A stretch of 64,000 nucleotides of DNA from Anaerolineales bacterium (GCA_020634155.1 JACKCI010000001.1:907768-971767), one strand, 5' to 3'. Shown: positions 1-14,896, counted from the stretch's first letter. A program made the numbers and translations. The notes: a model not told the origin generated them from the letters alone.

Positions 1-955
1 AGGCCTTGGCACGGTCACGCGGCAACCCGCTACTGATGCTATCAGCAACGGTATGAGCAGGGTGTGGCACCATCTCTGGAGCTGTCAAGCCTCGTTCCCA
101 CGCATCCACCAGCGCATCACTTCCCGCCGCTTGAACACCAATCAGGCGAGGCAGTTTATCAACCCATCCCAAATTGTATAACTCTCGACAGCCTTTGTGA
201 ACCCCGCCAATAATACTACCATCCCCCACAGAGACGACTATCACATCAGGGAGGTTCCAGTTCAGTTGTTCAGCAATCTCAAAAGCGACCGTTTTCTTGC
301 CCTCAGTGGTCATCGGATTAATGCCTGTACTGCGGTTGTACCAGCCAAATTCTTGACAGGCTTCAGTACACAAATCAAAAGCTGTATCATAATCCCCATC
401 AACCAAAATCACCCGCGCCCCGAAAATAAGCATTTGAGCAACCTTGGCTTCTGGTGCTGAAGCAGGCACAAAGATAACCGCTTCCGCATCTGGCACGGCG
501 GCACAACAGCCCGCCAAAGCTGCCGCGGCATTGCCAGTGCTGGCGGTGGCAATTACGCGACGACCCAACGTTTGAACCGCGTAATTGACCACCATCGCGC
601 TGGCACGGTCTTTGAGCGAACCCGTTAGGTTAAGACCGTCATTTTTTATACACACTTCCCCGACATCTAGCGCAGTCGCCAGATTTTGGAGGGCGTCATA
701 GCCAATTAAGGGGGTGCCACCTAAAGCAGCCAGACCCGCCACAGGCACGCCCTTCACGGGCAACAAATCGCGTTGACGCCAAAAGGTCAGTGGCCCCTCC
801 GCAGGTTGACGCTGGGTAGTATCGGCATAGAGGACATCCAAGGCCCCAACTTCCCCACAGCGCGGGCAAGCATAGAGTGTGTCGGCAAGGGCATAACGCT
901 CCCCACAGACCACACACTCCAAACCAATGATATGCTCTAACCCGGTAAAATCCAT
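1..955 (-). CDS. Threonine-synthase-like fold-type II PLP enzyme with N-terminal zinc ribbon (5' partial: start at 955, C-terminus beyond window edge)
   Basis: My own translation of the minus strand from ATG (rc of cat 953-955): MDFTGLEHIIGLECVVCGERYALADTLYACPRCGEVGALDV...LNLTGSLKDRAS...IATASTGNAAAALA. It has a CxxC...CxxC ribbon followed by the TGS(F/L)KDR PLP-lysine motif typical of threonine synthase. The ORF track shows no entry because the ORF runs off the edge. The gene overlaps the carbamate kinase stop by 19 nt. Confidence 0.6.
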   Translation of the reverse strand, partial: MDFTGLEHIIGLECVVCGERYALADTLYACPRCGEVGALDVLYADTTQRQPAEGPLTFWRQRDLLPVKGVPVAGLAALGGTPLIGYDALQNLATALDVGEVCIKNDGLNLTGSLKDRASAMVVNYAVQTLGRRVIATASTGNAAAALAGCCAAVPDAEAVIFVPASAPEAKVAQMLIFGARVILVDGDYDTAFDLCTEACQEFGWYNRSTGINPMTTEGKKTVAFEIAEQLNWNLPDVIVVSVGDGSIIGGVHKGCRELYNLGWVDKLPRLIGVQAAGSDALVDAWERGLTAPEMVPHPAHTVADSISSGLPRDRAKA

Positions 956-1881
956 GTTCCGGTCTCCCCATGCAAAGCGCGGCGGATATTGGGCGGGTTG
1001 GTGATTAAGGCACGCGGGCCACCTCGTTCCATAAAGCGAATGACCGCCTCAATTTTAGGCTGCATACTGCCTGCCGCAAAATGCCCCTCTTCCAAAAATT
1101 GACGCGCTTCTGAAAGCGTGATGCTGTCGAGGTCACGCTGTTGGGGGGTGTTGAAGTTCAAGGCTACTTTTTCAACACCTGTCGAGATGATGAACAAGTC
1201 CGCCATCAGTATTTGGGAGAGAAGGCTAGAAGCGCGGTCTTTGTCAATCACTGCCGCAATCCCTCGTAATTCACCCTTGGGGTTGCGAAACACAGGGATA
1301 CCCCCGCCCCCACAAGCGATAACGATATAGTTAGCACGAATCATGGTGCGGATAGCACCTTGTTCGATAATCTCAAGCGGTTCAGGGGAAGCCACAACCC
1401 GCCGCCAACCCCGTCCAGCGTCTTCCATAATCTGCCAGCCTTCGGTCTCAAATTGACGGGCTTGTTCTTCGGTCAGAAAGCTGCCAATCGGCTTGGTCGG
1501 GTTTTCAAATGCAGTATCATTGCGATCTACCAACACTTGGGTGACCATCGTAATTACACTGCGATTAATCCCCCGTAGCCGCAACTCGTTGTTGAGAGCC
1601 TGTTGGAGCATGTAACCAATCGCGCCTTGGGTGTCGGCCCCTATTAAATCAAGCGGGGTGGTATGCACCTCATGGGCAGCCAATTCATTGCGGCGCAAAA
1701 TAAAGCCGACTTGAGGGCCGTTGCCGTGAGTGACCACGACATTCCAGCCCTCCTCGACCATATCGGCAATATGTTGGCAGGTTTCACGCACCGCGTCCCA
1801 CTGGTGAGACACCGCCGTCTTTGATTTTTCAGTGATAAGCGAATTGCCACCGATGGCAATCACGGCTGTTTTCTCTGCCAT
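937..1881 (-). CDS. arcC: Carbamate kinase
   Basis: 314 aa; N-terminal AVIAIGGNSL, HGNGPQVG and internal GGGGIPV motifs of the amino-acid kinase/carbamate kinase family; start codon confirmed at 1879-1881. Confidence 0.85.
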   Translation of the reverse strand: MAEKTAVIAIGGNSLITEKSKTAVSHQWDAVRETCQHIADMVEEGWNVVVTHGNGPQVGFILRRNELAAHEVHTTPLDLIGADTQGAIGYMLQQALNNELRLRGINRSVITMVTQVLVDRNDTAFENPTKPIGSFLTEEQARQFETEGWQIMEDAGRGWRRVVASPEPLEIIEQGAIRTMIRANYIVIACGGGGIPVFRNPKGELRGIAAVIDKDRASSLLSQILMADLFIISTGVEKVALNFNTPQQRDLDSITLSEARQFLEEGHFAAGSMQPKIEAVIRFMERGGPRALITNPPNIRRALHGETGTWILPG

Positions 1882-1890
1882 TGTATTATC

Positions 1891-2874
1891 CTAGCTCATT
1901 GTTAATGCCATAACCGCTTTTTGAACGTGCAGGCGGTTCTCGGCTTCGTCATAAACAATACTTTGCGGGCCATCAATAACCTCGTCGGTTACTTCGATGT
2001 TGCGGTCAGCGGGCAGGCAATGCATATACACGGCGTCTTCGTGGGCCATGCCCATACGACGGCTGTCCGTAATCCAGTCAGTATATTGCTTGCCAATATT
2101 GGCGCTTTCGGTATTGTCCGAGGTGGTCAACATGGCTCCCCAACTCTTGGGATAGACCACATCAGCATCCTTGAAGCCTGCATCGAAGTCATCCAAAATC
2201 TCAAAGCTACCGCGACTCTTGCGGGCATTTTCCTTGGCCTGCTCCAAAATGTCGGGCATCAGCTTATATTCCGGTGGATGGGTCAGGCGCACATTCATGC
2301 CGAAGCGCGTCATCAGCAGAATCAGGCTTTGCGGAACGCTAATCGGCTTTTGGTAACTAGAGGCATAGGCCCAACTGACATTGATGGTCTTACCACGCAG
2401 TCCCTCGCGCCCAAAGCGTTCTTGAATGGTCATCAAGTCCGCCATAATTTGGAAGGGATGGTAAACATCGCATTGCATATTGAGGACTGGTACACGACTA
2501 GCTGCTGCTACATCGCGGATGTATTGGTTGCCAAAGTCCCAATCGCATTGGCGGATAGCAATACCATCGGTATAGCGCCCGATAATCTCGCCAATTTCTT
2601 TGGCAGTATCGCCATGTGAAATCTGAGTGGTGGTACTTTCAATGAATTGAGCATGCCCGCCCAATTGCGCCATACCCGCCTCGAAACTGACACGGGTGCG
2701 GGTGCTGCTGAAGAAGAAAAGCATCCCCAAGACTTTATCGCGCAGATAGGCATGGGGTTCGCCCACCGCCCGCTTGCGTTTGAGGTCAAAGGCGACATCC
2801 ATCACAGTATCAATTTCCGAGCGTGTCCACTCTTGGGTGGTAATCATATCACGCCCACGTAGATGCGTTTGCAT
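1891..2874 (-). CDS. ygeW: YgeW-type (knotted) carbamoyltransferase of the ATCase/OTCase superfamily
   Basis: 327 aa; STRTR carbamoyl-phosphate binding motif and HCLP motif; overall similarity to E. coli YgeW rather than ArgF/PyrB. An alternative start is the internal Met (MITTQEW...). Confidence 0.8.
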   Translation of the reverse strand: MQTHLRGRDMITTQEWTRSEIDTVMDVAFDLKRKRAVGEPHAYLRDKVLGMLFFFSSTRTRVSFEAGMAQLGGHAQFIESTTTQISHGDTAKEIGEIIGRYTDGIAIRQCDWDFGNQYIRDVAAASRVPVLNMQCDVYHPFQIMADLMTIQERFGREGLRGKTINVSWAYASSYQKPISVPQSLILLMTRFGMNVRLTHPPEYKLMPDILEQAKENARKSRGSFEILDDFDAGFKDADVVYPKSWGAMLTTSDNTESANIGKQYTDWITDSRRMGMAHEDAVYMHCLPADRNIEVTDEVIDGPQSIVYDEAENRLHVQKAVMALTMS

Positions 2875-2965
2875 AGGAACTATAATCTCCTGAAATCTAG
2901 TTGATAATCGAGAGTTTCGTCTTGTTATGTCGCATTGTCAAGGGGAATCCGCATAGTATCCCCGT

Positions 2966-4159
2966 CTAGCCAATCATCTTCGGCAGCAACGCATAGAAGG
3001 CCGTCGCCCGCACCACATCATCCAGCGACACACGGTCAAGCACCGTATGAGCATCGACCTCATCACCGGGGCCATAACCAATGCTGGGAATGCCTGCACG
3101 CCCTGCCCAATAGGTGCCATTGGTCGAGAAAGCCCACGTTCCCGTTTGCGGTGCATCTTCGCCCAACGCCTTGAGGGTATTCAACCCCGCCGCTACCAGT
3201 GGGTCGTTTTCCTCATAAAGCCAAGGTGGATAGATTTTGTCCGTCTCAAAGACAAAGCCCGTGTAGCTGGGGTCGTTGTACTTCAAAATCTCGGCTTTCA
3301 CATCATCACGCTTGCCAATGATGGCTTGGATTTGAGCAATAGCGCTCTCAGGAGTCTCGCCAAAGGTGATACGACGGTCAATGTACATCGTGGCTTCATT
3401 CGGCACCGCGTTGAGGCTCGGCGTGGTGACTTCCATGTGTGTTACGGTAATGCGCCCCTGCCCCAACACCTCATGATAGGCCAAGTCAGGTCGCTCCATT
3501 TTGCTGATGGCTTCAATGATAGGCAGCAGTTTATAAATGGCATTGTCGCCGAGATAGTTACTGGCGGCATGGGCGCTCTTGCCCTTGGCGACCACCTTCA
3601 TCTCCACCCGCCCAATATGACCGCGATAGACCTTCATCTTGGTTGGCTCGCCAATCACCACAAAGTCAGGGCGGATACCTTCGACCTCCACAAAAGCTTG
3701 GGGGGCGCTGCCATCATTCCATTCTTCCATATTGCCAAAGTAATAAGCAGTATAGCCTTCCAGCAAGCCAAGGTCACGGGCAATCGCCAGTCCGTAAATC
3801 ATGCCGGGGGTGCTGCCTTTCTCATCACAGGCTCCACGTGCATAAAAGATACCGTCCTCAACCTTGCCTTGGAAGGGGTCCCATTGCCACTCGGCAGGGT
3901 CGCCGACACCGACGGTATCAATGTGGCTATCATAGAGCAGTTTCTTGGGGCCATCGCCAATCTCGCCTACGATATTACCCATTTGGTCAAACCAGACTTT
4001 GTTGAAGCCAAGTTTTCGCATTTCCTCAGCCGCACGTTCCCCGACTTCCTTAATCTGGCTCTCCATACTGGGAATAGCGCACAATTCACGCAGAAAGCGA
4101 ATGATGTCTTCGCGGTGGGCCTCGACACGTTGTTGGATTTGAGATGCTACATCCGACAT
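2966..4159 (-). CDS. ygeY: M20-family metallopeptidase/amidohydrolase, YgeY-like
   Basis: 397 aa; HIDTV...GACDEKG...G(E)EE M20 metal-binding pattern; placed between ygeW-like and HAD genes as in ygeW-ygeY clusters. Confidence 0.8.
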   Translation of the reverse strand: MSDVASQIQQRVEAHREDIIRFLRELCAIPSMESQIKEVGERAAEEMRKLGFNKVWFDQMGNIVGEIGDGPKKLLYDSHIDTVGVGDPAEWQWDPFQGKVEDGIFYARGACDEKGSTPGMIYGLAIARDLGLLEGYTAYYFGNMEEWNDGSAPQAFVEVEGIRPDFVVIGEPTKMKVYRGHIGRVEMKVVAKGKSAHAASNYLGDNAIYKLLPIIEAISKMERPDLAYHEVLGQGRITVTHMEVTTPSLNAVPNEATMYIDRRITFGETPESAIAQIQAIIGKRDDVKAEILKYNDPSYTGFVFETDKIYPPWLYEENDPLVAAGLNTLKALGEDAPQTGTWAFSTNGTYWAGRAGIPSIGYGPGDEVDAHTVLDRVSLDDVVRATAFYALLPKMIG

Positions 4160-4162
4160 GGG

Positions 4163-4813
4163 TTACTCCTTAAAAATAGTTGGTAAATGATCTAATGAAG
4201 GTAAGACCCAATCAGCAATGCTCAAGCGTGGGTCACCATGCAATGAGGGGTCAGGCACCGCCACACAGCGCATTTCAGCGGCCTTTGCTGCCAATATGCC
4301 GCGCATAGAATCCTCAATGACAAGGCAATCAGTGGGCGCGATACCCAACTTGGCAGCCGCCGTCAGGTAAACACCGGGGTGAGGTTTGCCGTAGGGTTCA
4401 AACTCTGCTGAATATAACAGATGAAAATAATCCTGAATAGCCAGCTTTGCCACCACAGCTTCAATCATCGACAGGTCAGATGATGAAGCAATCGCTATGG
4501 GTAACTGACGTTGGCGAATCCACGCAAGGGCCTCCCCCACCCCTGTCATCGGCTGGCCCTGCTCACCGATTAACTCAGTTACACGGTCAACAATCTGCTG
4601 GCGGATGTCGTCAATGGTGGGAGGCATCGACCAAGGCTGGCGCTGATACCAGTATTCAACGGCCTTATCAATTCGCATACCCATCGTCTGCATACAATCG
4701 GCGTGGGTCAAGTGTAGGCCCACTGTGGGATAGATTTCCACCTCAGCTTGTTTCCAATATGGTTCGGAGTCAATCAGTACCCCGTCCATGTCAAAGATGA
4801 CTGCTTTAATCAT
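4163..4813 (-). CDS. HAD-superfamily hydrolase (beta-phosphoglucomutase-like subfamily IA)
   Basis: Motif I IFDMDGVLIDSE at the N-terminus when started at the internal Met (cat 4811-4813), and a C-terminal GD motif. The ORF track extends the start to 4858. The 8-nt overlap with the upstream gene stop (4806) suggests translational coupling. Confidence 0.75.
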   Translation of the reverse strand: MIKAVIFDMDGVLIDSEPYWKQAEVEIYPTVGLHLTHADCMQTMGMRIDKAVEYWYQRQPWSMPPTIDDIRQQIVDRVTELIGEQGQPMTGVGEALAWIRQRQLPIAIASSSDLSMIEAVVAKLAIQDYFHLLYSAEFEPYGKPHPGVYLTAAAKLGIAPTDCLVIEDSMRGILAAKAAEMRCVAVPDPSLHGDPRLSIADWVLPSLDHLPTIFKE

Positions 4814-5456
4814 GTTGCTCCAGTTTCCGGTCGTTCTCTTCTGAAAAGCTAAACGCATCTAGCTCCGCATAGGCCGACTCGACATCGTTCAAAAAGTCGG
4901 TTAAGTTCTCTAGCCTTCCCGTCAAACGGGCTGCTTGGCGCTGGGTGCGGGTGGTATACAACGACTCAAGGTGGGCAGGTATAGCAGCTTGTCGCGCCAA
5001 ATTCGTCTCTAACTGCTCACGTAGATTCTCTCGACGTGCATAAAGTTGGTGGGCCACAGGTGAGCTAGGGTCTCGGAATTGCGCCAAAGACTGCTCTACA
5101 ACCTGATATTCATCAATCAGCGCCGCAATACGGTCCCCCAGTTGTTGGGTCTGGTATAATAGCTCATCAGCTTGGGTACCACGCGGTAGTTGATGACTAG
5201 TCTGATAAACGATGCGCTCAACAGACAACAGGCGCTCATAATACGCACGGTACCGCTTCTCGACATGACCATGTAAAATATCGCGTATCCGCCCATGCTC
5301 AACCGTCAGGGTAGGATTGTGATAGTATAGGCGACGCAAGCGACGCAAACGACCCTCAAGGTCACTAGTCAGCGTGGGCAAGTTGAAAATCATGAATAGT
5401 TGGTCGAGAAAATTTAACAGTGCTGAACGTATGCGGTGCCAAACACTCCGACGCAT
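4806..5456 (-). CDS. Hypothetical helical protein (no recognisable domain)
   Basis: 216-aa ORF in operon position between the PNP-divergent promoter region and the HAD gene; Arg/Leu-rich, predicted alpha-helical. Confidence 0.45.
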   Translation of the reverse strand: MRRSVWHRIRSALLNFLDQLFMIFNLPTLTSDLEGRLRRLRRLYYHNPTLTVEHGRIRDILHGHVEKRYRAYYERLLSVERIVYQTSHQLPRGTQADELLYQTQQLGDRIAALIDEYQVVEQSLAQFRDPSSPVAHQLYARRENLREQLETNLARQAAIPAHLESLYTTRTQRQAARLTGRLENLTDFLNDVESAYAELDAFSFSEENDRKLEQHD

Positions 5457-5510
5457 GGCTTCACCCTCCGTGAAACAATGTTAAAATAAAATGCCATAAT
5501 TACGCAAAAT

Positions 5511-6359
5511 TTGGAGCATGCAATGATTTTTACCTACGACGATTACGCAGCTACGGCTGAGTTCATCCGGTCTCATCTAGAGTTTACCCCACGTATCGGG
5601 ATTATACTTGGCTCTGGTTTGGGACCACTGGCCGACAACATCGACAACCCCACCATCATCCCCTATCATGACATCCCCAACTGGCCCCAATCAACCGTGT
5701 GGGGACACTCTGGGCGCTTGGTGATTGGCACCCTTGAAGACCAGCCCGTGCTGGTGATGCAAGGACGGGTACATTTTTACGAGGGCTATAGCATGCAACA
5801 AGTCACCTTTCCGGTGCGGGTCATGCAGCTATTGGGCATTGAGGTCTTGATACTTACCAACGCGGCAGGCGGCATCAACACCAGTTTCAGCGCGGGTGAC
5901 CTGATGCTGATTGAAGACCACATCAATCTACTCGGTCACATGGGACAAAATGCACTGATGGGGCCAAACGATGAGCGCCTCGGTGAGCGCTTCCCCATCT
6001 TCACCTATGCCTACGACCCCGACCTGCGCCGCCAAGTCATTGCACTAGCCGAGCATGAGAATATCCCCCTCCAACGCGGCATCTATCTATGTCTATCTGG
6101 CCCTGCCTTTGAAACACCAGCCGAAATCCGCATGTTTCGGGCATGGGGAGCCGATGCGGTGGGCATGTCTACTGCCCCCGAAGCCACCGTTGCCGTTCAC
6201 GGCGGGATGCGAGTCATTGGTGTTTCCACCATCACCAATATCGCCATCGACCACCAAGCCGTGCGGCGCGAAGTCAGCCACGAGGAAGTCCTCAAGATCG
6301 GAGCCAAGGCGGTGCCGCGTCTCATGAAGCTGCTCCGAGGGGTCGTCCGCGAATTGTAA
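5511..6359 (+). CDS. punA: Purine nucleoside phosphorylase (trimeric PNP/MTAP family, inosine-guanosine type)
   Basis: 282 aa; GIILGSGLG phosphate loop, LTNAAGG and E...TPAE...GAD motifs of the PNP family I/II. Confidence 0.85.
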   Translation: MEHAMIFTYDDYAATAEFIRSHLEFTPRIGIILGSGLGPLADNIDNPTIIPYHDIPNWPQSTVWGHSGRLVIGTLEDQPVLVMQGRVHFYEGYSMQQVTFPVRVMQLLGIEVLILTNAAGGINTSFSAGDLMLIEDHINLLGHMGQNALMGPNDERLGERFPIFTYAYDPDLRRQVIALAEHENIPLQRGIYLCLSGPAFETPAEIRMFRAWGADAVGMSTAPEATVAVHGGMRVIGVSTITNIAIDHQAVRREVSHEEVLKIGAKAVPRLMKLLRGVVREL

Positions 6360-6385: not shown

Positions 6386-7165
6386 ATGGGAGCTTTTTTC
6401 TCACTCATTGAAAATCTATCCACAGGCCTCTATTTTATTTGTGGAGTTCTGCTCATCTGGAACCTACGGAGCTTGATGCAAGCCCGCCATGAACTGCAAT
6501 TGGCCCAATATGGCTTAGAGCGTGAAATGGCCGAGCGACATGGGGGACGCGCCCTAACCACCGTACTCCTCATGGCGGAATTCATCATTGTCGTGTGGGG
6601 TATCAGTAACTACGCCTCTCCTGCATGGAGCGAGGGCTTGCCCGATAGTGATGCCGAGTCCAACATCGACTCGCCCTTCATTACCAATACACCAGCGGGT
6701 GATGGGAGCTTTGATATTCAGGTACGCACCCTAGCCCCAACCGATGTACTGGCAACAGCAGCAGCCCCCAGCACACCTGTCGGCACCATTGGCCCGCGTA
6801 GCCAGCGCACCGGATGTGATCCTAACCAAGCGTGGATTGAGTACCCCGCCAATGGCATGTATGTTTTTGAAGAAGTTCCGGTCATGGGGACAGCCAACAT
6901 TGAAAACTTCGCCAAATACCGCTTTGAAATCCGCAAAGCCACCGATGTAGACTTCAGCCTCTATAGCAAAGGGGACTACAACCAGCCTGTAGTTGATGGG
7001 GAATTGGGTAGCTTTCTGCCTTCCGTCCTATTACCGGGTGAATACCGCTTTCGCCTGACCGTCTTTGATACCACCAACAACATCCGTGCCAGTTGCGAAA
7101 TCACCATCAACATCATTGAGCCAGTGCCAACCGCAACTCAACTGGGAGCAGTAGGCGTACAATAG
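6386..7165 (+). CDS. Hypothetical membrane protein (two N-terminal TM helices plus about 170-aa extracytoplasmic domain)
   Basis: 259 aa; TM segments LYFICGVLLIWNL and LLMAEFIIVVWGI; stop TAG 7163-7165 overlaps the GTG start of the next gene. Confidence 0.5.
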   Translation: MGAFFSLIENLSTGLYFICGVLLIWNLRSLMQARHELQLAQYGLEREMAERHGGRALTTVLLMAEFIIVVWGISNYASPAWSEGLPDSDAESNIDSPFITNTPAGDGSFDIQVRTLAPTDVLATAAAPSTPVGTIGPRSQRTGCDPNQAWIEYPANGMYVFEEVPVMGTANIENFAKYRFEIRKATDVDFSLYSKGDYNQPVVDGELGSFLPSVLLPGEYRFRLTVFDTTNNIRASCEITINIIEPVPTATQLGAVGVQ

Positions 7166-7515
7166 TGGGTCAACTAGATGCGCTTTTGCAGGTAGATGGT
7201 AGTGAATTTCTGGCGGCTGTTATCGTCGGACCTCAACAGACCATACTGGGTAGCTATGCACAAGTTGGCCTAGATACCACCACCGCCCAAGCGCCACTTG
7301 TGACGACCCAACGCATTTTCAGCAGCCCCGAAAGCCTCACAGCCTTGGCAGAAATGCAAGAGAGTGTATTCTATGACCTAGATGGGCGGCGTTTGGTGTG
7401 CCGCCCAATCATCGTGCGCGGGAAAATCTATGTCTTGATTGTGCTGACATCTGCTGAGAGTACCTATCGACGCACCCTCAATAAGCTAGTGAAAGCCATC
7501 GAAAAGACGCTCTAA
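7165..7515 (+). CDS. Roadblock/LC7-domain protein (MglB-like)
   Basis: 116 aa; pattern LxxLLxVxGxxxAAVIVxxxxTILGSY ... DLDGRRLVxR ... IYVLIVLT aligns with the Roadblock/LC7 profile as I recall it; GTG start overlapping the upstream stop. Confidence 0.45.
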   Translation: MGQLDALLQVDGSEFLAAVIVGPQQTILGSYAQVGLDTTTAQAPLVTTQRIFSSPESLTALAEMQESVFYDLDGRRLVCRPIIVRGKIYVLIVLTSAESTYRRTLNKLVKAIEKTL

Positions 7516-8651
7516 TCAAAGCGCTGCCCGTCAAAGATACCCGCATGGGTGCCATAGAGCAGATGGTCAACCGCCCGCTCGGCAATACCCGCCCCCAACG
7601 AGAGACCATGCCCATTCAAGCCCACCGCGTAGCCAATGCGTGCATCACGCGGCAGTGAGCCAACCATCGGCAAACCATCATCCGTAAAGCCCATAATCCC
7701 TGCCCACCGCCGCACAATCGGGGCCGTTACATCAGGAAAGCGGGTCTTGAGATAAGCCTCAAGAATAGCCTGAACGGGGTCGGTGGTACGGTCTTCGGTG
7801 GTATCCCCCTCAAGGGCCTTGTTCTGCTTACGTCCACCGCCAATGAGCAGACCCCCATCGGGTAAATCGCGGTAATACATATAGCCATAGTCAGAATAGC
7901 CCACCGCGTTGATAACGCGCTCTGGCAAGGGAGCCGTTGCCAAGCATTGAGCGCGATTGGGGGTGACTTTGCCCACAAAATAGGGGTCGAGATAGGGGCT
8001 ATAGGCATTGGTGCAAATCAGCACTTTTTGGGCGCGGACAATCGCCAGCCGTGAATAGACCACCACCTCAGTGGCCTCCGACTCAATGGCATACACCTCT
8101 GAGTTAGCTATCAACTTGGCTTCACTTGCTTGGAAGATAGCATTCAGCAACTGCACAGGATGGATACCCCCGTCCGTCGCTTGGCGAATGGCGGCATAAT
8201 AACCCCGCTGGAGGGGGTCGCTGGATAGGTATTCGCAATCGAAGCCATTGGCCTGCATCCGACGGGTGGATTGCTCCAATTCAAGACGTTCTTCGGGTGT
8301 CTCAGCCAATAGCAGCGAGCTACTCTGTTCCATCCAGACCCCGTGCTGACGAGCCGTGTCTTGCCAAAAGGCCAAAGAGCGCCGCGAAAGTTCCCATATC
8401 TCACGGGTAGCGGCCTCCCCGTAGACCATCTCGGCTTGGTGGTAGTATTTATCGAGACCTGTAATCATAAAGCCAGCGTTGCGGCTGCTGGCTCCCAAAC
8501 CCACATCACGAGCCTCAATGATGGTGGTAGTATATCCAGTTTGATGCAGATACAGGGCCGCCGTGCATCCTAGCAATCCTGCTCCAATAATCACCACATC
8601 GGTTGATTCGACGGGCTGTTCCCCGTTGGCCTGCCACACCGAGACGGTCAT
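7512..8651 (-). CDS. FAD-dependent oxidoreductase (DAO/glycine-oxidase-like)
   Basis: 379 aa; N-terminal VVIIGAGLLGCTAALYL dinucleotide-binding motif and C-terminal G..GHG..G signature of the DAO family. Confidence 0.75.
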   Translation of the reverse strand: MTVSVWQANGEQPVESTDVVIIGAGLLGCTAALYLHQTGYTTTIIEARDVGLGASSRNAGFMITGLDKYYHQAEMVYGEAATREIWELSRRSLAFWQDTARQHGVWMEQSSSLLLAETPEERLELEQSTRRMQANGFDCEYLSSDPLQRGYYAAIRQATDGGIHPVQLLNAIFQASEAKLIANSEVYAIESEATEVVVYSRLAIVRAQKVLICTNAYSPYLDPYFVGKVTPNRAQCLATAPLPERVINAVGYSDYGYMYYRDLPDGGLLIGGGRKQNKALEGDTTEDRTTDPVQAILEAYLKTRFPDVTAPIVRRWAGIMGFTDDGLPMVGSLPRDARIGYAVGLNGHGLSLGAGIAERAVDHLLYGTHAGIFDGQRFD

Positions 8652-10000
8652 TCTAGACCTGCCAACTTCTTCTCAAAGGCATATTGTTCGGGCGTGTCAA
8701 TATCGCGTAGGATGCTGTCGGTATCAACATTGACCGCTGTGATGGGATGCTGATTGATAACATCACGCGGCGCACCATGCCGCAAGCGTAGGAGAGCCTT
8801 CCAATAGCGTTGAGGGATTAAAATCGGATGTCCGCGACGCCCCATATAATAGGGTGCCACTATCGACTCCGGCCCTTGAGCCGCCGTCGTCAATACTCGA
8901 TGCACAATCCGTACTGAGATTTGGGGTTGGTCGCCCATCACCACCAAGGCCGCACTGATGTTGTCATCTAAGGCGCGTAAACCGACCCGTAATGATGATA
9001 ACATCTCACCCTTAGAGTACATGGTGTTAAAGACCGTGCGGACGGGGTAACGCTTGAGTTGGGCGCTAATCTCGCCCGCCTTGTAACCCGTCACCACCAC
9101 CACATCCGCTAAATGAAACGCCACCAGCTTCTGTGCAACAGCCTCAATTACGGTACGGTCACCCCACGGCAAAAGCATCTTAGAGCTACCCATCCGCGCC
9201 GAAAGCCCACCCGCCAAAACAATGGCCCCTATTCGGCGCTGCACCTCAGCGACAGGATTTTGCTCATTGTGCATCGAACCCAACACAACACTATGGACAC
9301 GCGGCTCCTTGAGTATCATCTGGGCAATTTTTCTGGCACGCGACATGCTCAAGCCGGGTCGGTCAATCTTGTTGAGCAAAGGTACCACCCGCGCAGTAGC
9401 GGGGACATCTTTCAATCCCAAGGTCTCATCCCGCACAATTTGGGCCACCCATGCAGGTTGAATCGGGTCGCCTTCATGGAAGCCATAGCGCTCAATGATA
9501 GGGTCAGGGTTGTATACCACATTTGAATCAAGTGGCTGCCCTAGCGCATCCAATCCCGCCACAGGCACCGCCACTGTAGTATCGGTCGGCCAAACAGGTT
9601 CATAGGTGCGGGGAGCCTTCAATGGCAAGCGCCGTGAGCCGTCAGCCTCCACCAATAGCACATCGGCATTCATTTCATCCACAAGGCGGGATACACGCTC
9701 AATCGGAATACCGCTGACCTTTTCACCGCGAATCTCTTGATAGACAAAGACCAATCCATAGTCATCTAAAAGCGGTTCAAGTTCACGGGCACCTTGCAGT
9801 AGATTCCATTGCCACTTGGCGGCATGGGGAAACAAGTCAAGTTCTTTGCGGGCAATGCGCGTGGTGGTGGTCGCCAATACCCGCCACCCCATCTCACGCA
9901 ATTCATAGCCAAGCCGCACCAGTGCCGAGGTCTTCCCCCCACCCCCGCTAAAGGATACGACATCACCCCGCTGTATATCTAGCGCCTCACAAAGCCGCAT
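8648..10000 (-). CDS. yqeC: SDMH accessory protein YqeC fused to a MobA/MocA-like molybdenum-cofactor nucleotidyltransferase
   Basis: 450 aa; the N-terminal part (FSGGGGKTS P-loop-like motif, about 240 aa) matches the YqeC family; the C-terminal part (AIVLAGGLSARMG...K) matches the MobA-like NTP-transferase fold. Confidence 0.7.
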   Translation of the reverse strand: MRLCEALDIQRGDVVSFSGGGGKTSALVRLGYELREMGWRVLATTTTRIARKELDLFPHAAKWQWNLLQGARELEPLLDDYGLVFVYQEIRGEKVSGIPIERVSRLVDEMNADVLLVEADGSRRLPLKAPRTYEPVWPTDTTVAVPVAGLDALGQPLDSNVVYNPDPIIERYGFHEGDPIQPAWVAQIVRDETLGLKDVPATARVVPLLNKIDRPGLSMSRARKIAQMILKEPRVHSVVLGSMHNEQNPVAEVQRRIGAIVLAGGLSARMGSSKMLLPWGDRTVIEAVAQKLVAFHLADVVVVTGYKAGEISAQLKRYPVRTVFNTMYSKGEMLSSLRVGLRALDDNISAALVVMGDQPQISVRIVHRVLTTAAQGPESIVAPYYMGRRGHPILIPQRYWKALLRLRHGAPRDVINQHPITAVNVDTDSILRDIDTPEQYAFEKKLAGLE

Positions 10001-10016
10001 TCTCGCTTCCTATCAC

Positions 10017-10829
10017 TCACTCCGTTGGTATGAGTGGGGTAATCCCACAACTCAAAATCGCCTCTAATACCCCACCCCCAATTGCCAGCGATTTCTCGGA
10101 AATAGTGAAACAATGTGCATAAACGCAGCGGGGGTCTAAATCACCTATTTTCATCCCTTGCGTGACGTGTACACTAGGATGAATAAGCCCGCGTAGTCGT
10201 CCCGTAAAAGCCGCTATTACTGGATGACCATTGACTATTGCAATGGTTGCTCCAGCTTCGATTTCATCCCCTATCATAGCATAGGGTTCGACAAAACCCG
10301 CAACAGGCGCTCGCAACACACGGTCACCCGTCATCCCCATCATGTTACCCGGAACATTGGTGTTCGGTTCAGCCGCCCCCTGCCAAATCACACGCCCTAA
10401 GTAATGTCCGCGATTGGTTTCTATCACGGCGTGGCAATCCTCCCCCGCGCTGAAGCCCGGCCCCAAGGCAATCACCAATTCCGCGTCTTGCATAGCTGTA
10501 TCAATGTTGCGTTTGGCGACACGGGCATCAATCACCACTCGTGGGGAGAGGTTACGCCATTCATGGTCATCAATCACGGGAATCTCAGCGGCTTGCAAAG
10601 CCAACCACGCTGCCGATGATGCCTCGATGCAGCGGGCGGTGATGCCCTCTACCTGCACAGTACCCTCAAACATAGCGCTGCCAAAACTCACGGTACGGCG
10701 GACAAGGGTTGGGGCCTCCAACTCGGTCATGACCACCGGATAATGTGCCTTGAATAAACGATAGGCGACCCCAGAACCGAGGTCACCCGCGCCACGAATG
10801 AGGATAAGCGGCAGATTAGATGACACCAA
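10017..10829 (-). CDS. yqeB: SDMH system protein, YqeB/EF2563 family (XdhC-like Rossmann maturation factor)
   Basis: 270 aa; N-terminal LILIRGAGDLGSGVAYRL Rossmann motif; immediately downstream of the Mo-subunit gene with a 14-nt overlap. Confidence 0.6.
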   Translation of the reverse strand: MVSSNLPLILIRGAGDLGSGVAYRLFKAHYPVVMTELEAPTLVRRTVSFGSAMFEGTVQVEGITARCIEASSAAWLALQAAEIPVIDDHEWRNLSPRVVIDARVAKRNIDTAMQDAELVIALGPGFSAGEDCHAVIETNRGHYLGRVIWQGAAEPNTNVPGNMMGMTGDRVLRAPVAGFVEPYAMIGDEIEAGATIAIVNGHPVIAAFTGRLRGLIHPSVHVTQGMKIGDLDPRCVYAHCFTISEKSLAIGGGVLEAILSCGITPLIPTE

Positions 10830-13029
10830 GGCCCTCCTTACGCAAGGCAGCCACCACGCGGTCAGGCGTTAGTGGAATTTCATCCATCCAAACGCCAGTG
10901 GCATCATGCACCGCCGCCGTAATAGCTGGAGCCAGTGGCAAGAACGGCATTTCAGCCATGCCACGCCCGCCCCAAGGCCCAATCGGTGTCGGTATCTCAA
11001 TGATAATAGATTTGACCTCACGGGGGATGTCATAAACCGTCGGTATCAGATAGCTAGAGAGATAGGGGTTGAGGATACGCCCCTCGTGCGAGATGAGGTG
11101 CTCCATCAACGCATACCCTTGGGCTTGGACTACCGCGCCCTCTATCTGACCTTCAATCGCCAAGCGATTCATGGCCTTGCCCACATCGTTGGCACAGACC
11201 ACCCGCTCTAACTTGATAATGCCCGTTTCAATATCAACCTCGACCTCAACCACTTCCGCGACATAGCCATAGGCAAAATTCGGTGTGCCATAACCTGTTT
11301 CGGGGTCAAGCGGTGTGGTGGCAGGTGGACGATATTGATAAGTGGCTTTGGCGGGGCGCTCTTCATCTTGCCATTTTTGCAGCGCTTGTTCAGCGGCCCC
11401 ACGAATGGCATTGCCCGTCATAAAGGTCAAGCGCGACGCCGAGGCACTACCCGAATTTTGGGTCTCAGAGGTATCATGAGAAATGAGGCGCACCTGTTCA
11501 ACAGGCACCCCAACGGCCTCAGCCGTCATTTGAACAAAAGCCGTGTGCGACCCCTGCCCAACCTCGGCACCCGCCGTCCGGACAATCACCTCCTCAATCG
11601 CGGTCCCGCCATAGAGTTCGATGGTTGCCCAGCAATTTTCAGGGGCACCAAAGCTAAAACCGATGTTTTTGAAAGCACACGCAAAACCAATTCCGCGCCG
11701 CTTAGAAGGGTCAGACGGCTGTGTAATGGCTTTCCGCTCCCACGTAACATCCTTCTGCCAATAGCCACTCTCGGCTGCACAGGTTTCAACTACTTCGGGA
11801 ATGGTGACGCCGGGTGGGGCAACTGTTCCCGTTGTCATCATCGACCCCTCGTGTAACAGATTCCGCATCCGCACCTCAACAGGGTCAAGCCCGAGTGCCG
11901 CCGCCAGCTTATTCATCTGGTTCTCAGCAGCAAAGGCTCCTTGTGGGCCACCAAAGCCGCGAAAAGCCCCGCATGGGATATTGTTGGTGCAGACGGCATA
12001 GGTATCGACTGCCACATTTGTCAGTTCATAGGGGCCTGTTACCATCAAGTGGGCATTCCCCATCACTTTATTGGAGGTGTAGTTATAGGCCCCACCGTCG
12101 CCAATGACCTTAGCTTCTACCGCAACCACTTTGCCTTCGCGGGTAGCACCCCAGCGCGTATAAATCCGCACTGGATGGCGCTTATGGTGGTATTGAATCG
12201 ATTCCTCACGGCTCCAAACTGTTTTGATAGGACGTTGCAGCTTCCATGCCGCAAGGGCGAGGACAATCTGCACGCTCATGTCTTCACGACCACCAAAAGC
12301 TCCACCAATGGCTGGATAGATGATACGTACTTGTTCTGGTGGAAGATTCAAAGCGTGGTAGATTTGCTCTTGGTCTTCATGCACCCACTGACCCGATACC
12401 ACAACTGTCACCCGCCCGGCCTCATCAATATAGCTGAGTCCAGCTTCAGGTTGCAGAAATGCATGCTCTTGGTAGCCCGTTTGATAAACACCTTCCACCA
12501 CCACATCGGCTTGCTGCCATGCCGCCTCAAGGTCACCTTGGCGAATACGGTAGTGCGTGATGGTGTTGTTAAGATAGCGGGTATGTAATTGAGGAGCGCC
12601 ATCCGCGAGGGCCACCTCGGGGTCAAATACGGCGGGCAAATCCTCATATTCAACAATGATGAGTTGGGCTGCCGCTTCTGCTGCTTCTGCTGATTCAGCG
12701 ACCACGATGGCGATATTATCCATTAGACAGCGCACAATGTCGGCCCCTTCAATTGTACTGCCGGGGCCACATAATACTGGCTGGTCTTTGATAGTCAGGC
12801 CATATTCATTCACCGGAACATCTTTAGCAGTGAAGACCGCCACCACACCGGGGTAAGCCTCCGCTGGGGTGGTATCCATTGCCACTACGCGGGCATGTAC
12901 TCGATCAGAATAGCGGATTTTGAGCCACAGTTGACCTTCAATATCAATATCGGCGGGATAGAGGGTCTCGCCTGTCACCTTGCCAACCCCATCCAAGCGG
13001 GGTATACGAGTTCCTATCATACTGGTCAT
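10816..13029 (-). CDS. Xanthine-dehydrogenase-family molybdopterin-binding large subunit
   Basis: 737 aa; aldehyde oxidase/xanthine dehydrogenase a/b hammerhead and MoCo-binding signatures (GGAFGGRE/GGGFGG-type motif, C-terminal E...PE...G). Confidence 0.85.
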   Translation of the reverse strand: MTSMIGTRIPRLDGVGKVTGETLYPADIDIEGQLWLKIRYSDRVHARVVAMDTTPAEAYPGVVAVFTAKDVPVNEYGLTIKDQPVLCGPGSTIEGADIVRCLMDNIAIVVAESAEAAEAAAQLIIVEYEDLPAVFDPEVALADGAPQLHTRYLNNTITHYRIRQGDLEAAWQQADVVVEGVYQTGYQEHAFLQPEAGLSYIDEAGRVTVVVSGQWVHEDQEQIYHALNLPPEQVRIIYPAIGGAFGGREDMSVQIVLALAAWKLQRPIKTVWSREESIQYHHKRHPVRIYTRWGATREGKVVAVEAKVIGDGGAYNYTSNKVMGNAHLMVTGPYELTNVAVDTYAVCTNNIPCGAFRGFGGPQGAFAAENQMNKLAAALGLDPVEVRMRNLLHEGSMMTTGTVAPPGVTIPEVVETCAAESGYWQKDVTWERKAITQPSDPSKRRGIGFACAFKNIGFSFGAPENCWATIELYGGTAIEEVIVRTAGAEVGQGSHTAFVQMTAEAVGVPVEQVRLISHDTSETQNSGSASASRLTFMTGNAIRGAAEQALQKWQDEERPAKATYQYRPPATTPLDPETGYGTPNFAYGYVAEVVEVEVDIETGIIKLERVVCANDVGKAMNRLAIEGQIEGAVVQAQGYALMEHLISHEGRILNPYLSSYLIPTVYDIPREVKSIIIEIPTPIGPWGGRGMAEMPFLPLAPAITAAVHDATGVWMDEIPLTPDRVVAALRKEGLGVI

Positions 13030-13475
13030 GAATCCGCCTTCTTTTCTTTGGCTTTGCGGTCAATCGCTTCTTGTTTATCGCGCATACGTTTGAGTGCCTT
13101 GATTTTTTGAGCGCGTTGATGGGCGATTTTGGCCTCATAGCGACGAATCTTGCGAGGAGTAAGATCTTTTTCTTTAAGGCGCACCGTTTTCGATTCTTGA
13201 TCGATGAGTGTATCGCGCCCTTGGATTAGCGACACAAACATCACGATAAGCGCGAGGCTGATAAACCACATCATAATCCCTATCATCAAGTAAAGGTCTC
13301 GGTCTTGAATATCCGCAATCTGCTCAGACACACGGTCATTTTCTCTCAAGAAATCCCCTATCGCGGGAGCCGTCGCATAGCAAATCGCCGCTGTACACAA
13401 CGCCAAAACAAGGCCCATCGCGGGCAAAAGCGCACTTGGCTTGTTTTCTTCAGTGACTTTCTTGAACTCTGTCAT
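13026..13475 (-). CDS. Small membrane protein with highly basic coiled-coil C-terminal tail, embedded between the XDH subunit genes
   Basis: 149 aa; two hydrophobic helices and a Lys/Arg-rich tail (KEKDLTPRKIRRYEAKIAHQRAQKIKALKRMRDKQEAIDRKAKEKKADS); 4-nt overlaps with both neighbours. Confidence 0.45.
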   Translation of the reverse strand: MTEFKKVTEENKPSALLPAMGLVLALCTAAICYATAPAIGDFLRENDRVSEQIADIQDRDLYLMIGIMMWFISLALIVMFVSLIQGRDTLIDQESKTVRLKEKDLTPRKIRRYEAKIAHQRAQKIKALKRMRDKQEAIDRKAKEKKADS

Positions 13476-13477
13476 GG

Positions 13478-14896
13478 TTAGCTTCCTTTGACCGCCTTAT
13501 GAAACGCTTCTATTATTTTATAATATCCTGTGCAACGGCATAAATTGCCGGAGATACTTTGAGCAACCTGTTCATCAGTCGGGTGCGGGTACTCCTCAAG
13601 AAGTTTGGCACCAGACATCAGAAAGCCCGGAATACAATACCCGCACTGCACCGCACCTGTATCCAAGAATGCTTGTTGCAAGGGGTGAAGGTTGCCATCA
13701 CTCGCTAAACCTTCAATGGTGATAATTTCAGCACCATGAGCACGGGGCGCAGGCACCATACAGGCCATCACCGCTACCCCATCCAAAAATACCGTACAGG
13801 CTCCACACTCGCCCTCTGCACAGCCCTCTTTGGTACCCGTTAGGCCTACATAGTCACGCAGAAAGTCCAGTAGATTCAACTGTACACCGCCCGTCACCGT
13901 TACTGTGCGTCCATTCACAGTCGTTGTAATGGTCTCCGCAGCATCACGCTCATGTCGTAAAGTAACGGGCAGTGGTGCAATCGCTGGTGGTTCACCCCCA
14001 CCCCATAGCATGGCGGGGTCAGTTGGGACATGCGTTTTGTAAGAGCCATCCCGAATCGAACGCAAGACCCTTGCTATCAGCACCTTTACCATCTCGGTGC
14101 GATATGACGCAGATGCCCGCACATCATCAATAGGGCGCGGCACACTAGCTGTCAAACGTGCGGTTTCAGCGATAACCGCATCCGTCAATGTTTTCCCAGC
14201 CAGATACTCCTCAGCAAGGGGTACACGAATAATGGTTGGGGCTACCGCTCCCAGCGTGATTTTTGCAGACTGAATACGGTCAGCCTCGAAGGCGAGGATA
14301 GCGGTTACGCTAACGACAGAAATGGCCTGTGCTTGCCGTAACTCAAGGCGCAGAAATGTTCCAACTTGGTTAGGCTGCATTATGGGGATATGAATAGCGG
14401 TTAGCAACTCATCAGGTTGCATCACAGTCTTTCGCACCCCCGTATAGAATTCCACCAGAGGGATCGTGCGATCACCCTTAACAGAACGCAGCGTGACGCT
14501 GGCTCCTAGCGCCATCAGCGGCACAATGGTATCGTTGGCAGGGCTGGCCGTAATGAGATTGCCTGCAATAGTACCCCGATTACGAATTTGGGGAGCGCCC
14601 ACCTTCCAGCAAGCCGCCGCTAGGGGAAAGGCCCATGCGCGGATTAAGGGATTAGCGACTGCTTGATTGTGGTTGACCGTCGGCCCTAGCACTAAGGTTT
14701 GGCCTTCCTGCCGAATACAGTCAAGCTCAGGCACGCGGCTGACGTCAATCAGCGTGTCCACCCCCGCCCGCTGACCACGCTCTAGCTCTATCAAGATATC
14801 GGTTCCACCAGCTACAATTCGCGCTCGTTCTCGGTATTTAGCGAGGAGTTCAAGTGCATCTTCAACAGATGTGACTGAAAAGTAGTTTTTCCACAT
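13478..14896 (-). CDS. Xanthine-dehydrogenase-family FAD-binding subunit fused to a [2Fe-2S] ferredoxin subunit (CoxM-CoxS-like fusion)
   Basis: 472 aa; the N-terminus is an FAD-binding PCMH domain (VAGGTD..IELE); the C-terminus carries the ferredoxin-type C..C..C and CGxC motifs (GCAEGECGACTVFLDG ... CGYCIPG ... LCRCTGY). Confidence 0.85.
   Translation of the reverse strand: MWKNYFSVTSVEDALELLAKYRERARIVAGGTDILIELERGQRAGVDTLIDVSRVPELDCIRQEGQTLVLGPTVNHNQAVANPLIRAWAFPLAAACWKVGAPQIRNRGTIAGNLITASPANDTIVPLMALGASVTLRSVKGDRTIPLVEFYTGVRKTVMQPDELLTAIHIPIMQPNQVGTFLRLELRQAQAISVVSVTAILAFEADRIQSAKITLGAVAPTIIRVPLAEEYLAGKTLTDAVIAETARLTASVPRPIDDVRASASYRTEMVKVLIARVLRSIRDGSYKTHVPTDPAMLWGGGEPPAIAPLPVTLRHERDAAETITTTVNGRTVTVTGGVQLNLLDFLRDYVGLTGTKEGCAEGECGACTVFLDGVAVMACMVPAPRAHGAEIITIEGLASDGNLHPLQQAFLDTGAVQCGYCIPGFLMSGAKLLEEYPHPTDEQVAQSISGNLCRCTGYYKIIEAFHKAVKGS

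Follow-up and report, generated by a model that had tools for sequence, protein, structure and literature searches.

The stretch of DNA analysed here (the window) is 64,000 nucleotides long and comes from a metagenome-assembled genome (MAG) of an Anaerolineales bacterium, phylum Chloroflexota (GCA_020634155.1, JACKCI010000001.1:907768-971767). At one end it carries a set of genes that appears to serve purine catabolism, consisting of a xanthine dehydrogenase (XDH)-family molybdenum (Mo) hydroxylase and a carbamoyltransferase module (Table 1). Short gaps between the genes and 4-bp overlaps suggest two minus-strand operons. One of these encodes, in order, a fused FAD/2Fe-2S subunit, a small putative membrane protein, the Mo subunit, YqeB, a YqeC-MocA fusion and a DAO-family flavoprotein, whose gene start overlaps the end of the YqeC-MocA gene by 4 bp. 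The lower operon encodes a protein of 216 amino acids (aa), a HAD-family phosphatase, YgeY, the carbamoyltransferase, carbamate kinase and a pyridoxal phosphate (PLP) enzyme resembling threonine synthase (ThrC). The carbamate kinase gene begins 9 bp 3′ of the carbamoyltransferase gene, and the ATG of the ThrC-like gene, at 955, overlaps the carbamate kinase stop codon. Between the operons is a plus-strand unit made up of a purine nucleoside phosphorylase (PNP) gene, divergent from the lower operon, and two open reading frames (ORFs) of no known family.

Gene calls are based on an ORF listing and on Pfam and NCBIfam profile scans. They recover at positions 1–14896 all of the genes named in an initial annotation, which had been made from the sequence without database searches and had proposed a selenium-dependent, YgeW-type purine-catabolic set in a non-enteric, non-clostridial genome; the Chloroflexota MAG is such a genome. 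The remaining ~45 kb of the window has unrelated housekeeping genes, and Rfam at gathering thresholds finds a single tRNA and no riboswitch in the 64 kb. Judged from its sequence, the locus probably encodes a variant, in an Anaerolineales lineage, of the reductive urate pathway, which proceeds through 2,8-dioxopurine.

Table 1. Genes at the purine-catabolic locus of the Anaerolineales window, by position. Scores are in bits; cutoffs are those of the named models.
Position	Strand	Product	Evidence
1..955	-	ThrC-like PLP enzyme with N-terminal CxxC...CxxC zinc ribbon	Pfam PALP 185 bits
937..1881	-	Carbamate kinase (YqeA/ArcC type)	TIGR00746 378 bits, cutoff 358; NF009007 399, cutoff 266
1891..2874	-	Compact YgeW-clade carbamoyltransferase, 327 aa	Pfam OTCace_N + OTCace
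2966..4159	-	YgeY-family M20 amidohydrolase	TIGR03526 463, cutoff 321.5; NF009555 430, cutoff 321
4163..4858	-	HAD-family phosphatase, HxpB-like	NF008087 267 bits, cutoff 191; Pfam HAD_2
4806..5456	-	216-aa protein without Pfam or NCBIfam match, first gene of lower operon	Gene call also in L083, L087
5511..6359	+	Purine nucleoside phosphorylase	NF006054 366, cutoff 218; TIGR01700 341, cutoff 293
6386..7515	+	Two ORFs, 259 aa and 116 aa, 3′ of phosphorylase	No family matches; kept in L083, L087
7512..8651	-	DAO-family FAD-dependent oxidoreductase, last gene of XDH operon in this genus	Pfam DAO 192 bits
8648..10000	-	YqeC fused to MocA-like molybdenum cofactor cytidylyltransferase domain, 450 aa	TIGR03172 150, cutoff 73
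10017..10829	-	YqeB, short form, 269 aa as annotated	TIGR03309 337 bits, cutoff 220
10816..13029	-	Mo (molybdopterin-binding) subunit of XDH-family hydroxylase, 737 aa	Pfam Ald_Xan_dh_C, MoCoBD_1, MoCoBD_2
13026..13475	-	149-aa protein with two hydrophobic putative transmembrane stretches and Lys/Arg-rich tail	Sequence; no family matches
13478..14896	-	Fused FAD/2Fe-2S subunit of XDH-family enzyme	Pfam FAD_binding_5 (4-172), CO_deh_flav_C (187-280), Fer2 (326-373), Fer2_2 (393-465)

The carbamoyltransferase is 38–40% identical to E. coli YgeW over its length. HMMER scores place it equidistant from three solved structures: Pyrococcus furiosus ornithine carbamoyltransferase (OTC; 213 bits), Xanthomonas campestris N-acetylornithine carbamoyltransferase (AOTC or AOTCase; 212 bits) and E. 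coli YgeW (208 bits). In a multiple alignment the carbamoyl-phosphate domain is generic, and identities of the C-terminal domain, which binds the second substrate, are 48.7% with YgeW, 39.7% with AOTC and 34.1% with OTC. There is a proline-rich loop of nearly the same sequence in the window enzyme (SWAYASSYQKPISVPQ) and in YgeW (TWAYSPSYGKPLSVPQ), and the 120's loop is four residues longer than that of P. furiosus OTC and one shorter than that of YgeW. A proline-rich loop and an extended 120's loop together form the sequence signature of knotted transcarbamylases (Shi et al., 2015), and the window enzyme has both. The OTC ornithine-binding motif DxxxSMG is replaced by PKSWGAM.

Residues proposed for the second-substrate site of YgeW are Q98, D124, Q160, S200, K203, K270, D334 and E344 (Shi et al., 2015; PMC4581275). 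Seven of the eight are identical in the window enzyme, compared with two of eight in AOTC and two of eight in OTC; the sole differing position is that of D124, which is Cys110. Among 98 tabulated sequences (91 full-length representatives from an exhaustive HMMER search, and references), the combination of QxQSKKDE and the KPxSVPQ loop is restricted to the window family, two intermediates (P0244 and P0264) and true YgeW. A neighbour-joining tree of 89 sequences, each covering at least 90% of the query, unites the window family and YgeW in a clade of 11 that is apart from OTC, AOTC and other clades and is recovered in 37 of 40 bootstraps. An AlphaFold2 model of the enzyme (24 close homologues) is poor, with a mean predicted local distance difference test score of 62 and values below 50 in the N-domain.

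The alignment also shows what the window enzyme is missing relative to YgeW: 14 residues at the N-terminus, three internal inserts (of 11 aa, of 16 aa in the 240's loop, and of 6 aa) and ~20 residues at the C-terminus. It is without the extra helices of YgeW and has 327 aa as against 396 aa. By phylogeny, loop signature and predicted substrate-site residues the enzyme is of the YgeW type, outside formal hidden Markov model (HMM) membership and without the YTCase-specific decorations. We label it a compact YgeW-clade enzyme because its site, loop and tree placement are YgeW-like, yet its scores are below the HMM cutoffs and the YgeW extensions are missing.

Members of this family (P0001–P0120) carry public names that point elsewhere, ‘ornithine carbamoyltransferase’ at NCBI and ‘N-acetylornithine carbamoyltransferase’ at JGI. 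The YgeW-like substrate site and the catabolic context make both names doubtful, and they are probably wrong; the members are most likely diureidopropionate carbamoyltransferases, to judge from the same comparisons. An identity as OTC or AOTC was considered and rejected, given the YgeW-like second-substrate site, the catabolic neighbours and scores below the cutoffs of the OTC and AOTC models (273 against 306, and 263 against 288). There is some likeness to AOTCase and to SOTCase (Shi et al., 2015; PMC4581275), as the window enzyme likewise has the proline-rich loop and, where the 240's loop begins, the conserved Lys of a KSWG motif, and is of comparable length. However, the extended AOTC-type 80's loop is absent from it, only the two site residues are in common with AOTC, and its gene context is a catabolic one that includes carbamate kinase, and not one of arginine biosynthesis.

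Relatives of the carbamoyltransferase were collected by a scan of GTDB species genomes, which gave at least 595 matches, and the suggestion in the initial annotation that the pathway is widespread outside enterics and clostridia agrees with this number. Neighbourhood counts refer to the best 80 of the at least 595 matches and to 10 kb around the carbamoyltransferase. These 80 relatives are 74–85% identical to the window enzyme and are distributed across phyla, mainly Chloroflexota, with Acidimicrobiia, Nitriliruptorales, Opitutales and one Kiloniellales MAG also represented. Two Logan contigs, L083 and L087, are closer still; their carbamoyltransferases are 94% and 97% identical to that of the window, and both contigs are colinear with window positions 1–13000.

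Carbamate kinase is encoded near the carbamoyltransferase in 56 of the 80 loci and YgeY in 40. An SsnA homologue is found in 37 (representative NF005540 492, cutoff 444), adenine deaminase in 23 (representative TIGR01178 619, cutoff 472), D-hydantoinase in 7–11 (representative TIGR02033 437, cutoff 393), and a Se_dep_XDH enzyme of XdhD architecture in 10–11 (representative TIGR03311 836, cutoff 830); in Actinomycetota loci the Se_dep_XDH-type enzyme is directly beside the compact YgeW carbamoyltransferase. Nucleoside-type ABC permeases and ATPases and a GntR regulator are frequent neighbours of the module. A representative NpdG is above the curated cutoff, and FolD, CofE, CofD, nitroreductase, a GntR/UTRA regulator and ABC transporter components are neighbours confirmed by Pfam. 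The links across phyla to SsnA, adenine deaminase, hydantoinase, XdhD-type enzymes and transporters bear out the purine-catabolic assignment made at the outset. The typical order in Anaerolineae is FolD, SsnA, (hydantoinase), adenine deaminase, YgeY, carbamoyltransferase, carbamate kinase, ThrC-like PLP enzyme, GT2 glycosyltransferase, CysK-like PLP enzyme, an ORF of no known family, SsnA, NpdG, CofE, nitroreductase and CofD. In many Anaerolineae (L001–L030) two SsnA paralogues flank the carbamoyltransferase module, and the NpdG reductase, CofE, the nitroreductase-fold protein and CofD directly follow the purine cluster (e.g. L012, L015 and L020).

The colinear contigs also provide a view past the left edge of the window. 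In L083 and L087 the ThrC-like gene is followed by a GT2 gene, a 72-aa ORF, a CysK-like PLP enzyme, two ORFs (232 aa and 151 aa), a few unrelated genes, of which one is on the opposite strand, and then SsnA, which is ~8.7 kb beyond the carbamoyltransferase (L087: NF005540 506, cutoff 444). By analogy, the genome of the window very probably has SsnA ~7–8 kb to the left of position 1. Genes for F420 biosynthesis and for the F420-related reductase occur only in relatives that are more distant.

The initial annotation had pointed to a PLP enzyme that is not the YgeX of E. coli, and this swap is confirmed and is conserved: 48 of the 80 loci encode a ThrC-like enzyme and one encodes YgeX. Only the first 318 of ~420 residues of the ThrC-like protein are inside the window, and the C-terminus is beyond the left edge. 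The available part is 94% identical to a full-length ortholog (L087:11920-13182), which scores 266 with the closer model NF006050 (PRK08197), below the cutoff of 303. Identity to YgeX is 26% over ~200 aa, and the YgeX model NF006058 gives 43–45 bits against a cutoff of 276. The enzyme is nearer to true threonine synthases, with ~35–40% identity and a best PDB match to Mycobacterium tuberculosis ThrC (193 bits).

The 46 cluster-associated ThrC-like members retain the lysine motif for PLP. In contrast to true ThrC, the motif NS-x-NP-x-R-x-EGQKT is changed to TG-x-NP-x-[T/M]-x-EGKKT, and GNAGN to GDG-x-I, in 43–45 of the 46 and in the window protein, while the M. tuberculosis enzyme and the ThrC of PDB entry 6cgq retain the motif R and N. 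In ThrC this Arg and Asn bind the substrate phosphate, and the loss of the motif is a lead and not a test. A bona fide threonine synthase was rejected as the identity of the ThrC-like gene because the motif residues are replaced in nearly all members.

The CysK-like PLP enzyme (470–486 aa) is found in 42 of the 80 loci and is distant from cysteine synthases (59 bits). The conserved position of the ThrC-like gene after carbamate kinase, across phyla, argues for a role in the pathway, and the most economical proposal from sequence comparison is that the enzyme performs the YgeX step or a related elimination. A membrane-type GT2 glycosyltransferase gene (PgfS/ArnC-like) is situated between the ThrC-like and CysK-like genes in 23 loci, for example at L083:13179-14195 and L087:13179-14195. 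Full-text literature searches found no description of the compact YgeW subfamily or of the ThrC-like replacement.

The Mo subunit is 33% identical to E. coli XdhA, 30% to E. coli XdhD and 37.5% to an actinobacterial Se_dep_XDH-type enzyme located beside a compact YgeW. It scores below the Se_sel_red_Mo model (TIGR03313; 288 against 1102) and belongs to none of the curated enzyme families of molybdenum hydroxylases that depend on selenium (SDMH). The best summed PDB match is to Eubacterium barkeri nicotinate dehydrogenase (3hrd, 281 + 163 bits), which is a selenium-containing enzyme. The Mo subunit has Glu, Arg and Glu aligned with the rat XDH motifs GGKE, RHPF and GEPP, positions that we take to be bovine E802, R880 and E1261; the first Glu is absent from nicotinate dehydrogenase and from Desulfovibrio gigas aldehyde oxidoreductase. 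The presence of the three residues at XDH motif positions makes it likely that the enzyme acts on a purine. Glu606 of XdhD, named by Li et al. (10.1101/2025.05.19.654654), falls in an indel-rich loop where the alignment to the Mo subunit is ambiguous. The position equivalent to bovine E802 is Gln in both E. coli XdhA and XdhD, and does not discriminate XDH from 2,8-dioxopurine dehydrogenase.

The electron-transfer subunit has its FAD domains first and its two 2Fe-2S domains last, an arrangement also found in two further Chloroflexota contigs, L093 and L094. In the xanthine_xdhA model TIGR02963 the FeS part comes before the FAD part. At the position of the 149-aa ORF, between the XDH subunit genes, L091, L093 and L094 have ORFs of 142–159 aa. 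The 149-aa product, a putative membrane protein from its hydrophobic stretches, may tether the hydroxylase to the membrane.

YqeB and YqeC, the maturation proteins named in the initial annotation, both hold up in profile searches (TIGR03309 and TIGR03172; Table 1). YqeB is 49% identical to residues 270–524 of E. coli YqeB, and a protein identical to it (P0121) bears the NCBI name ‘EF2563 family selenium-dependent molybdenum hydroxylase system protein’. The YqeC-MocA fusion scores 123 with Pfam YqeC (PF19842, cutoff 27.6), 118 with NTP_transf_3, and 151 with TIGR03310, which is below the cutoff of 186; its YqeC and MocA parts are 27% and 26% identical to the E. coli counterparts. A 450-aa fusion is also present in L093 and L094, and it physically joins the putative selenium step to synthesis of the molybdopterin cytosine dinucleotide cofactor.

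The block that runs from the FAD/FeS subunit through the small putative membrane ORF and the Mo subunit to YqeB and YqeC/MocA is conserved in L093 and L094 at ~66–67% YqeB identity, where it is found without the carbamoyltransferase module and without the DAO gene after YqeC-MocA. The joint presence of YqeB with YqeC is the accepted signature of the selenium-cofactor trait (PMC5029168). The case for selenium dependence of the Mo enzyme consists of these two proteins, and by analogy the enzyme probably carries a labile selenium ligand. The selenium-dependent Mo hydroxylase trait (Haft and Self, 2008, PMC2276186; Peng et al., 2016, PMC5029168) is matched at the locus by YqeB and YqeC directly 3′ of an XDH-family enzyme, and YgeY and SsnA are among the same accessory markers; the Mo subunit differs from the enzymes of the trait in fitting no curated SDMH model. 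The trait is reported to favour host-associated, anaerobic organisms (Peng et al., 2016, PMC5029168), and here it is an uncultured Anaerolineales MAG that is concerned.

The pathway itself was reconstituted in 2025 for E. coli, Clostridioides difficile and Clostridium sporogenes (preprints of Li et al., 10.1101/2025.05.19.654654, and Liu et al., 10.1101/2025.04.24.650524). XdhD, the 2,8-dioxopurine dehydrogenase (DOPDH), converts urate to 2,8-dioxopurine, which is reduced by YgfK; SsnA and then HyuA open the rings to give 2,3-diureidopropionate, which undergoes phosphorolysis by YgeW with formation of ATP by YqeA, and YgeY and YgeX lead to pyruvate. SelD has been shown to be required for the clostridial enzymes of the pathway. 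The initial annotation had supposed that ATP is recovered from carbamoyl phosphate, and for E. coli YgeW and YqeA this has been demonstrated experimentally (10.1101/2025.04.24.650524).

The E. coli genes form the groups ygeW-ygeX-ygeY-hyuA-yqeA, yqeB-yqeC-mocA and ygfK-ssnA-ygfM-xdhD, and the window has homologues of YgeW, YqeA, YgeY, YqeB, YqeC and MocA, as well as an XDH-family Mo enzyme with an FAD subunit. Its carbamate kinase is 50% identical to E. coli YqeA and its YgeY 40% identical to the E. coli protein. The two systems share an underlying logic, namely a Mo hydroxylase with YqeB/YqeC maturation and ATP formation linked to carbamoyl phosphate, and SsnA is near in the close relatives of the window. 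The differences are also clear. YgeX is replaced by the ThrC-like and CysK-like enzymes, and neither YgfK nor HyuA is encoded in the window or in its immediate relatives. The Mo enzyme is made up of a Mo subunit on its own and a second subunit in which FAD and FeS parts are fused, whereas that of E. coli consists of an FeS-Mo protein (XdhD) and YgfM. In the window YqeC is fused to MocA, YqeB is a short form, the carbamoyltransferase is shorter, and the host is an environmental member of the Chloroflexota.

Li et al. (10.1101/2025.05.19.654654) reported SsnA clusters with an F420-type reductase in Chloroflexota and Actinomycetota, with the neighbouring genes sorted by Pfam family only. The Chloroflexota clusters are from the same phylum as the window and have SsnA with PF00185, PF01546 and PF00291 proteins; because the analysis was at the Pfam level, the compact YgeW and the ThrC-like enzyme were not split from YgeW and YgeX. 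The F420 link applies to the Anaerolineae relatives too, which have NpdG, CofE and CofD beside the cluster. The luciferase-family F420 reductase that Li et al. proposed is neither in the window nor among the recurrent families scanned in related flanks.

If the locus indeed encodes the dioxopurine pathway, its steps can be pictured as follows. The phosphatase and phosphorylase would trim nucleotides and nucleosides to free purine bases; the HAD phosphatase, whose counterpart in the colinear L083 and L087 is a 216-aa product, is possibly a nucleotidase that supplies the phosphorylase, a role assigned from context. The Mo enzyme, with a cytosine-dinucleotide cofactor (from the MocA domain) and probably a labile selenium ligand (from YqeB and YqeC), would interconvert oxopurines, i.e. 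xanthine to urate, urate to 2,8-dioxopurine, or both. Ring reduction and subsequent opening by SsnA-type hydrolases, encoded outside the window, would then yield 2,3-diureidopropionate. The compact YgeW is predicted to remove one carbamoyl group from this compound by phosphorolysis, and carbamate kinase would form ATP from the carbamoyl phosphate and ADP. The second ureido group would be hydrolysed by YgeY, and the ThrC-like PLP enzyme, possibly with the CysK-like enzyme, would take the place of YgeX in converting the C3 amino acid to pyruvate and ammonia.

It should be pointed out that a number of observations weigh against this reading. Homologues of SsnA, HyuA and YgfK are not found in the 64-kb window, and with regard to a dearomatising reductase there is no YgfK/UacX-type or F420-dependent enzyme in the window and no PF01180 or PF00296 protein among the called genes of L083 and L087. 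YqeB, YqeC or a window-type XDH is found within 10 kb of the carbamoyltransferase in 0 of the 80 other loci, and, as the XDH operon and the module are adjacent only in this genus, their functional coupling is putative. The designation of the carbamoyltransferase as YgeW-type in the initial annotation agrees with the tree, the loop and seven of the eight site residues, but both NCBIfam YgeW cutoffs are missed (TIGR03316, 208 against 500; NF005538, 224 against 453), and D124 is replaced by Cys. With the generic thrC model TIGR00260 the score of the ThrC-like ortholog is above the cutoff (192.7 against 167.1), and therefore a housekeeping threonine synthase is formally possible; in addition, the GT2 gene between the PLP genes has no obvious place in purine catabolism. 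The Mo subunit reaches no NCBIfam equivalog cutoff (PucD, 545 against 784; Se_dep_XDH TIGR03311, 471 against 830), its top single PDB match is 4-hydroxybenzoyl-CoA reductase, and the comparison with characterised enzymes points to either XDH or 2,8-dioxopurine dehydrogenase without separating the two. Selenium dependence, as first proposed, has YqeB and YqeC in its favour and the Se_dep_XDH score to its detriment; furthermore, a tblastn search with E. coli SelD finds no selD in the 64-kb window, and no AIRS-domain gene is present in the ~10 kb flanks of L083, L087, L093 and L094.

Some of these observations would also fit an arrangement in which the two operons are independent neighbours, the XDH/YqeB/YqeC operon specifying a stand-alone hydroxylase of purines or other N-heterocycles, and YgeY, carbamoyltransferase, carbamate kinase and the PLP enzyme forming a separate ureide-degrading module that came to be situated beside it in this genus. 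The count of zero in 80 loci, the occurrence of the XDH operon without the module in L093 and L094, and the plus-strand gene unit that intervenes between the operons are all consistent with such an arrangement. Nevertheless, we regard it as unlikely. In L094, too, the XDH/YqeB/YqeC operon has a PNP gene and two ORFs of no known family ~4 kb away, and in other genomes SsnA, adenine deaminase and XdhD-type enzymes accompany the carbamoyltransferase module. The Actinomycetota place a Se_dep_XDH-type enzyme directly beside a related carbamoyltransferase, and in characterised organisms both functions are parts of one pathway. Both blocks recur beyond chance, YgeY-carbamoyltransferase-carbamate kinase-PLP enzyme in dozens of species and XDH-YqeB-YqeC in other Chloroflexota.

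It is less probable still that the module degrades a ureido compound that is not derived from purines, such as an exogenous carbamoylated amino acid (albizziin, citrulline or an N-acyl-citrulline, for instance), with PLP chemistry unrelated to diaminopropionate. The Caldilineales-type loci, which consist of a compact operon of GntR, YgeY, carbamoyltransferase, carbamate kinase and two PLP enzymes with no SsnA within 10 kb, could be interpreted in this manner, as could the change of D124 to Cys and the presence of two PLP enzymes instead of one, neither of them YgeX-like. On the other hand, the loop signature and the other seven YgeW site residues are retained, PKSWGAM stands where OTC has DxxxSMG, and SsnA is within 10 kb in nearly half of the loci (37/80), with adenine deaminase, hydantoinase, XdhD-type enzymes and ABC transporters frequent. 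That the database names are correct, and that an ordinary OTC or AOTC and a threonine synthase are housekeeping genes beside an XDH, is very improbable: the NCBI and JGI names, the best NCBIfam scores of the carbamoyltransferase (to OTC and AOTC models) and the TIGR00260 match of the PLP ortholog speak for it, but no OTC or AOTC cutoff is reached, the second-substrate site resembles that of YgeW, a catabolic carbamate kinase and YgeY are the neighbours that are conserved, with no arg genes seen, and the ThrC motif residues are replaced in 43–45 of 46 members.

Of the preferred dioxopurine reading there is also a more far-reaching version, which is tentative and rather doubtful. Perhaps the compact YgeW, the zinc-ribbon ThrC-like enzyme and the CysK-like enzyme constitute a distinct lower branch of anaerobic-type purine degradation, in which a C3 ureido-amino acid is processed by PLP chemistry absent from the E. 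coli pathway (e.g. beta-elimination or beta-replacement on a ureido- or amino-substituted alanine). Such a branch would be coupled to F420 in place of NAD(P)H or ferredoxin, would be at work in bacteria that are free-living and partly aerobic, and would at present be mis-annotated as arginine and threonine biosynthesis. It would be conserved in Chloroflexota, Actinomycetota, Verrucomicrobiota and some Alphaproteobacteria.

With respect to novelty, the variant features stand, but the pathway was solved in 2025 and SsnA clusters of Chloroflexota and Actinomycetota had been noted by Li et al. What is new here is the compact YgeW subfamily, to which the names OTC or AOTC are widely and probably wrongly given; the conserved pair of ThrC-like and CysK-like enzymes in the place of YgeX; the Chloroflexota XDH-YqeB-YqeC/MocA operon with its embedded putative membrane ORF; and the joining, in this genus, of the XDH operon with the carbamoyltransferase module at a single locus. 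If the interpretation is correct, the reductive urate pathway with its yield of ATP would not be confined to gut anaerobes and would be common in environmental Chloroflexota and Actinomycetota, e.g. in lineages of activated sludge, sediment and groundwater. The compact YgeW enzyme would offer a minimal scaffold for studies of YgeW specificity, the ThrC-like and CysK-like enzymes would be candidates for the last, still-debated steps of the pathway, and the conserved XDH-YqeB-YqeC/MocA operon would provide a simple system for the unsolved problem of selenium-cofactor maturation.

Several other features of the locus and its surroundings can be mentioned. Pfam and NCBIfam scans of the ORFs of 216, 259, 116, 149 and 375 aa give no matches. 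The 259-aa product has an N-terminal hydrophobic stretch, and ORFs similar in size to the 259- and 116-aa pair adjoin PNP in L094. Directly upstream of the XDH genes, at 14909–19754 on the minus strand, are genes for the 375-aa protein, which has a signal peptide, an 864-aa penicillin-amidase-family protein and an M50/CBS protease; a signal-peptide protein, a penicillin-amidase-family protein and an M50/CBS protease are likewise upstream in L093, whose YqeB is 67% identical.

A gene for a TIR_2 protein is just upstream of SsnA in the colinear contigs (L083:18650-19681 and L087:18639-19679), with a PIN-domain ORF beside it in L087, which may represent an insertion of defence or toxin genes into the cluster. 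The window has its own TIR_2 protein, combined with an FHA domain, at 45907–46938 on the plus strand. At 47000–47793 on the same strand is an IS4/IS5-family transposase in two ORFs (DUF4096, then a DDE domain), which could represent a programmed frameshift or a decayed copy. The far end of the window, 48242–63997 on the minus strand, is taken up by very large ORFs, including one of 1605 aa with PMT_2 and NHL repeats, one of 735 aa, a 1050-aa DUF2298 membrane protein and one of at least 1464 aa, together with an ECF sigma factor.

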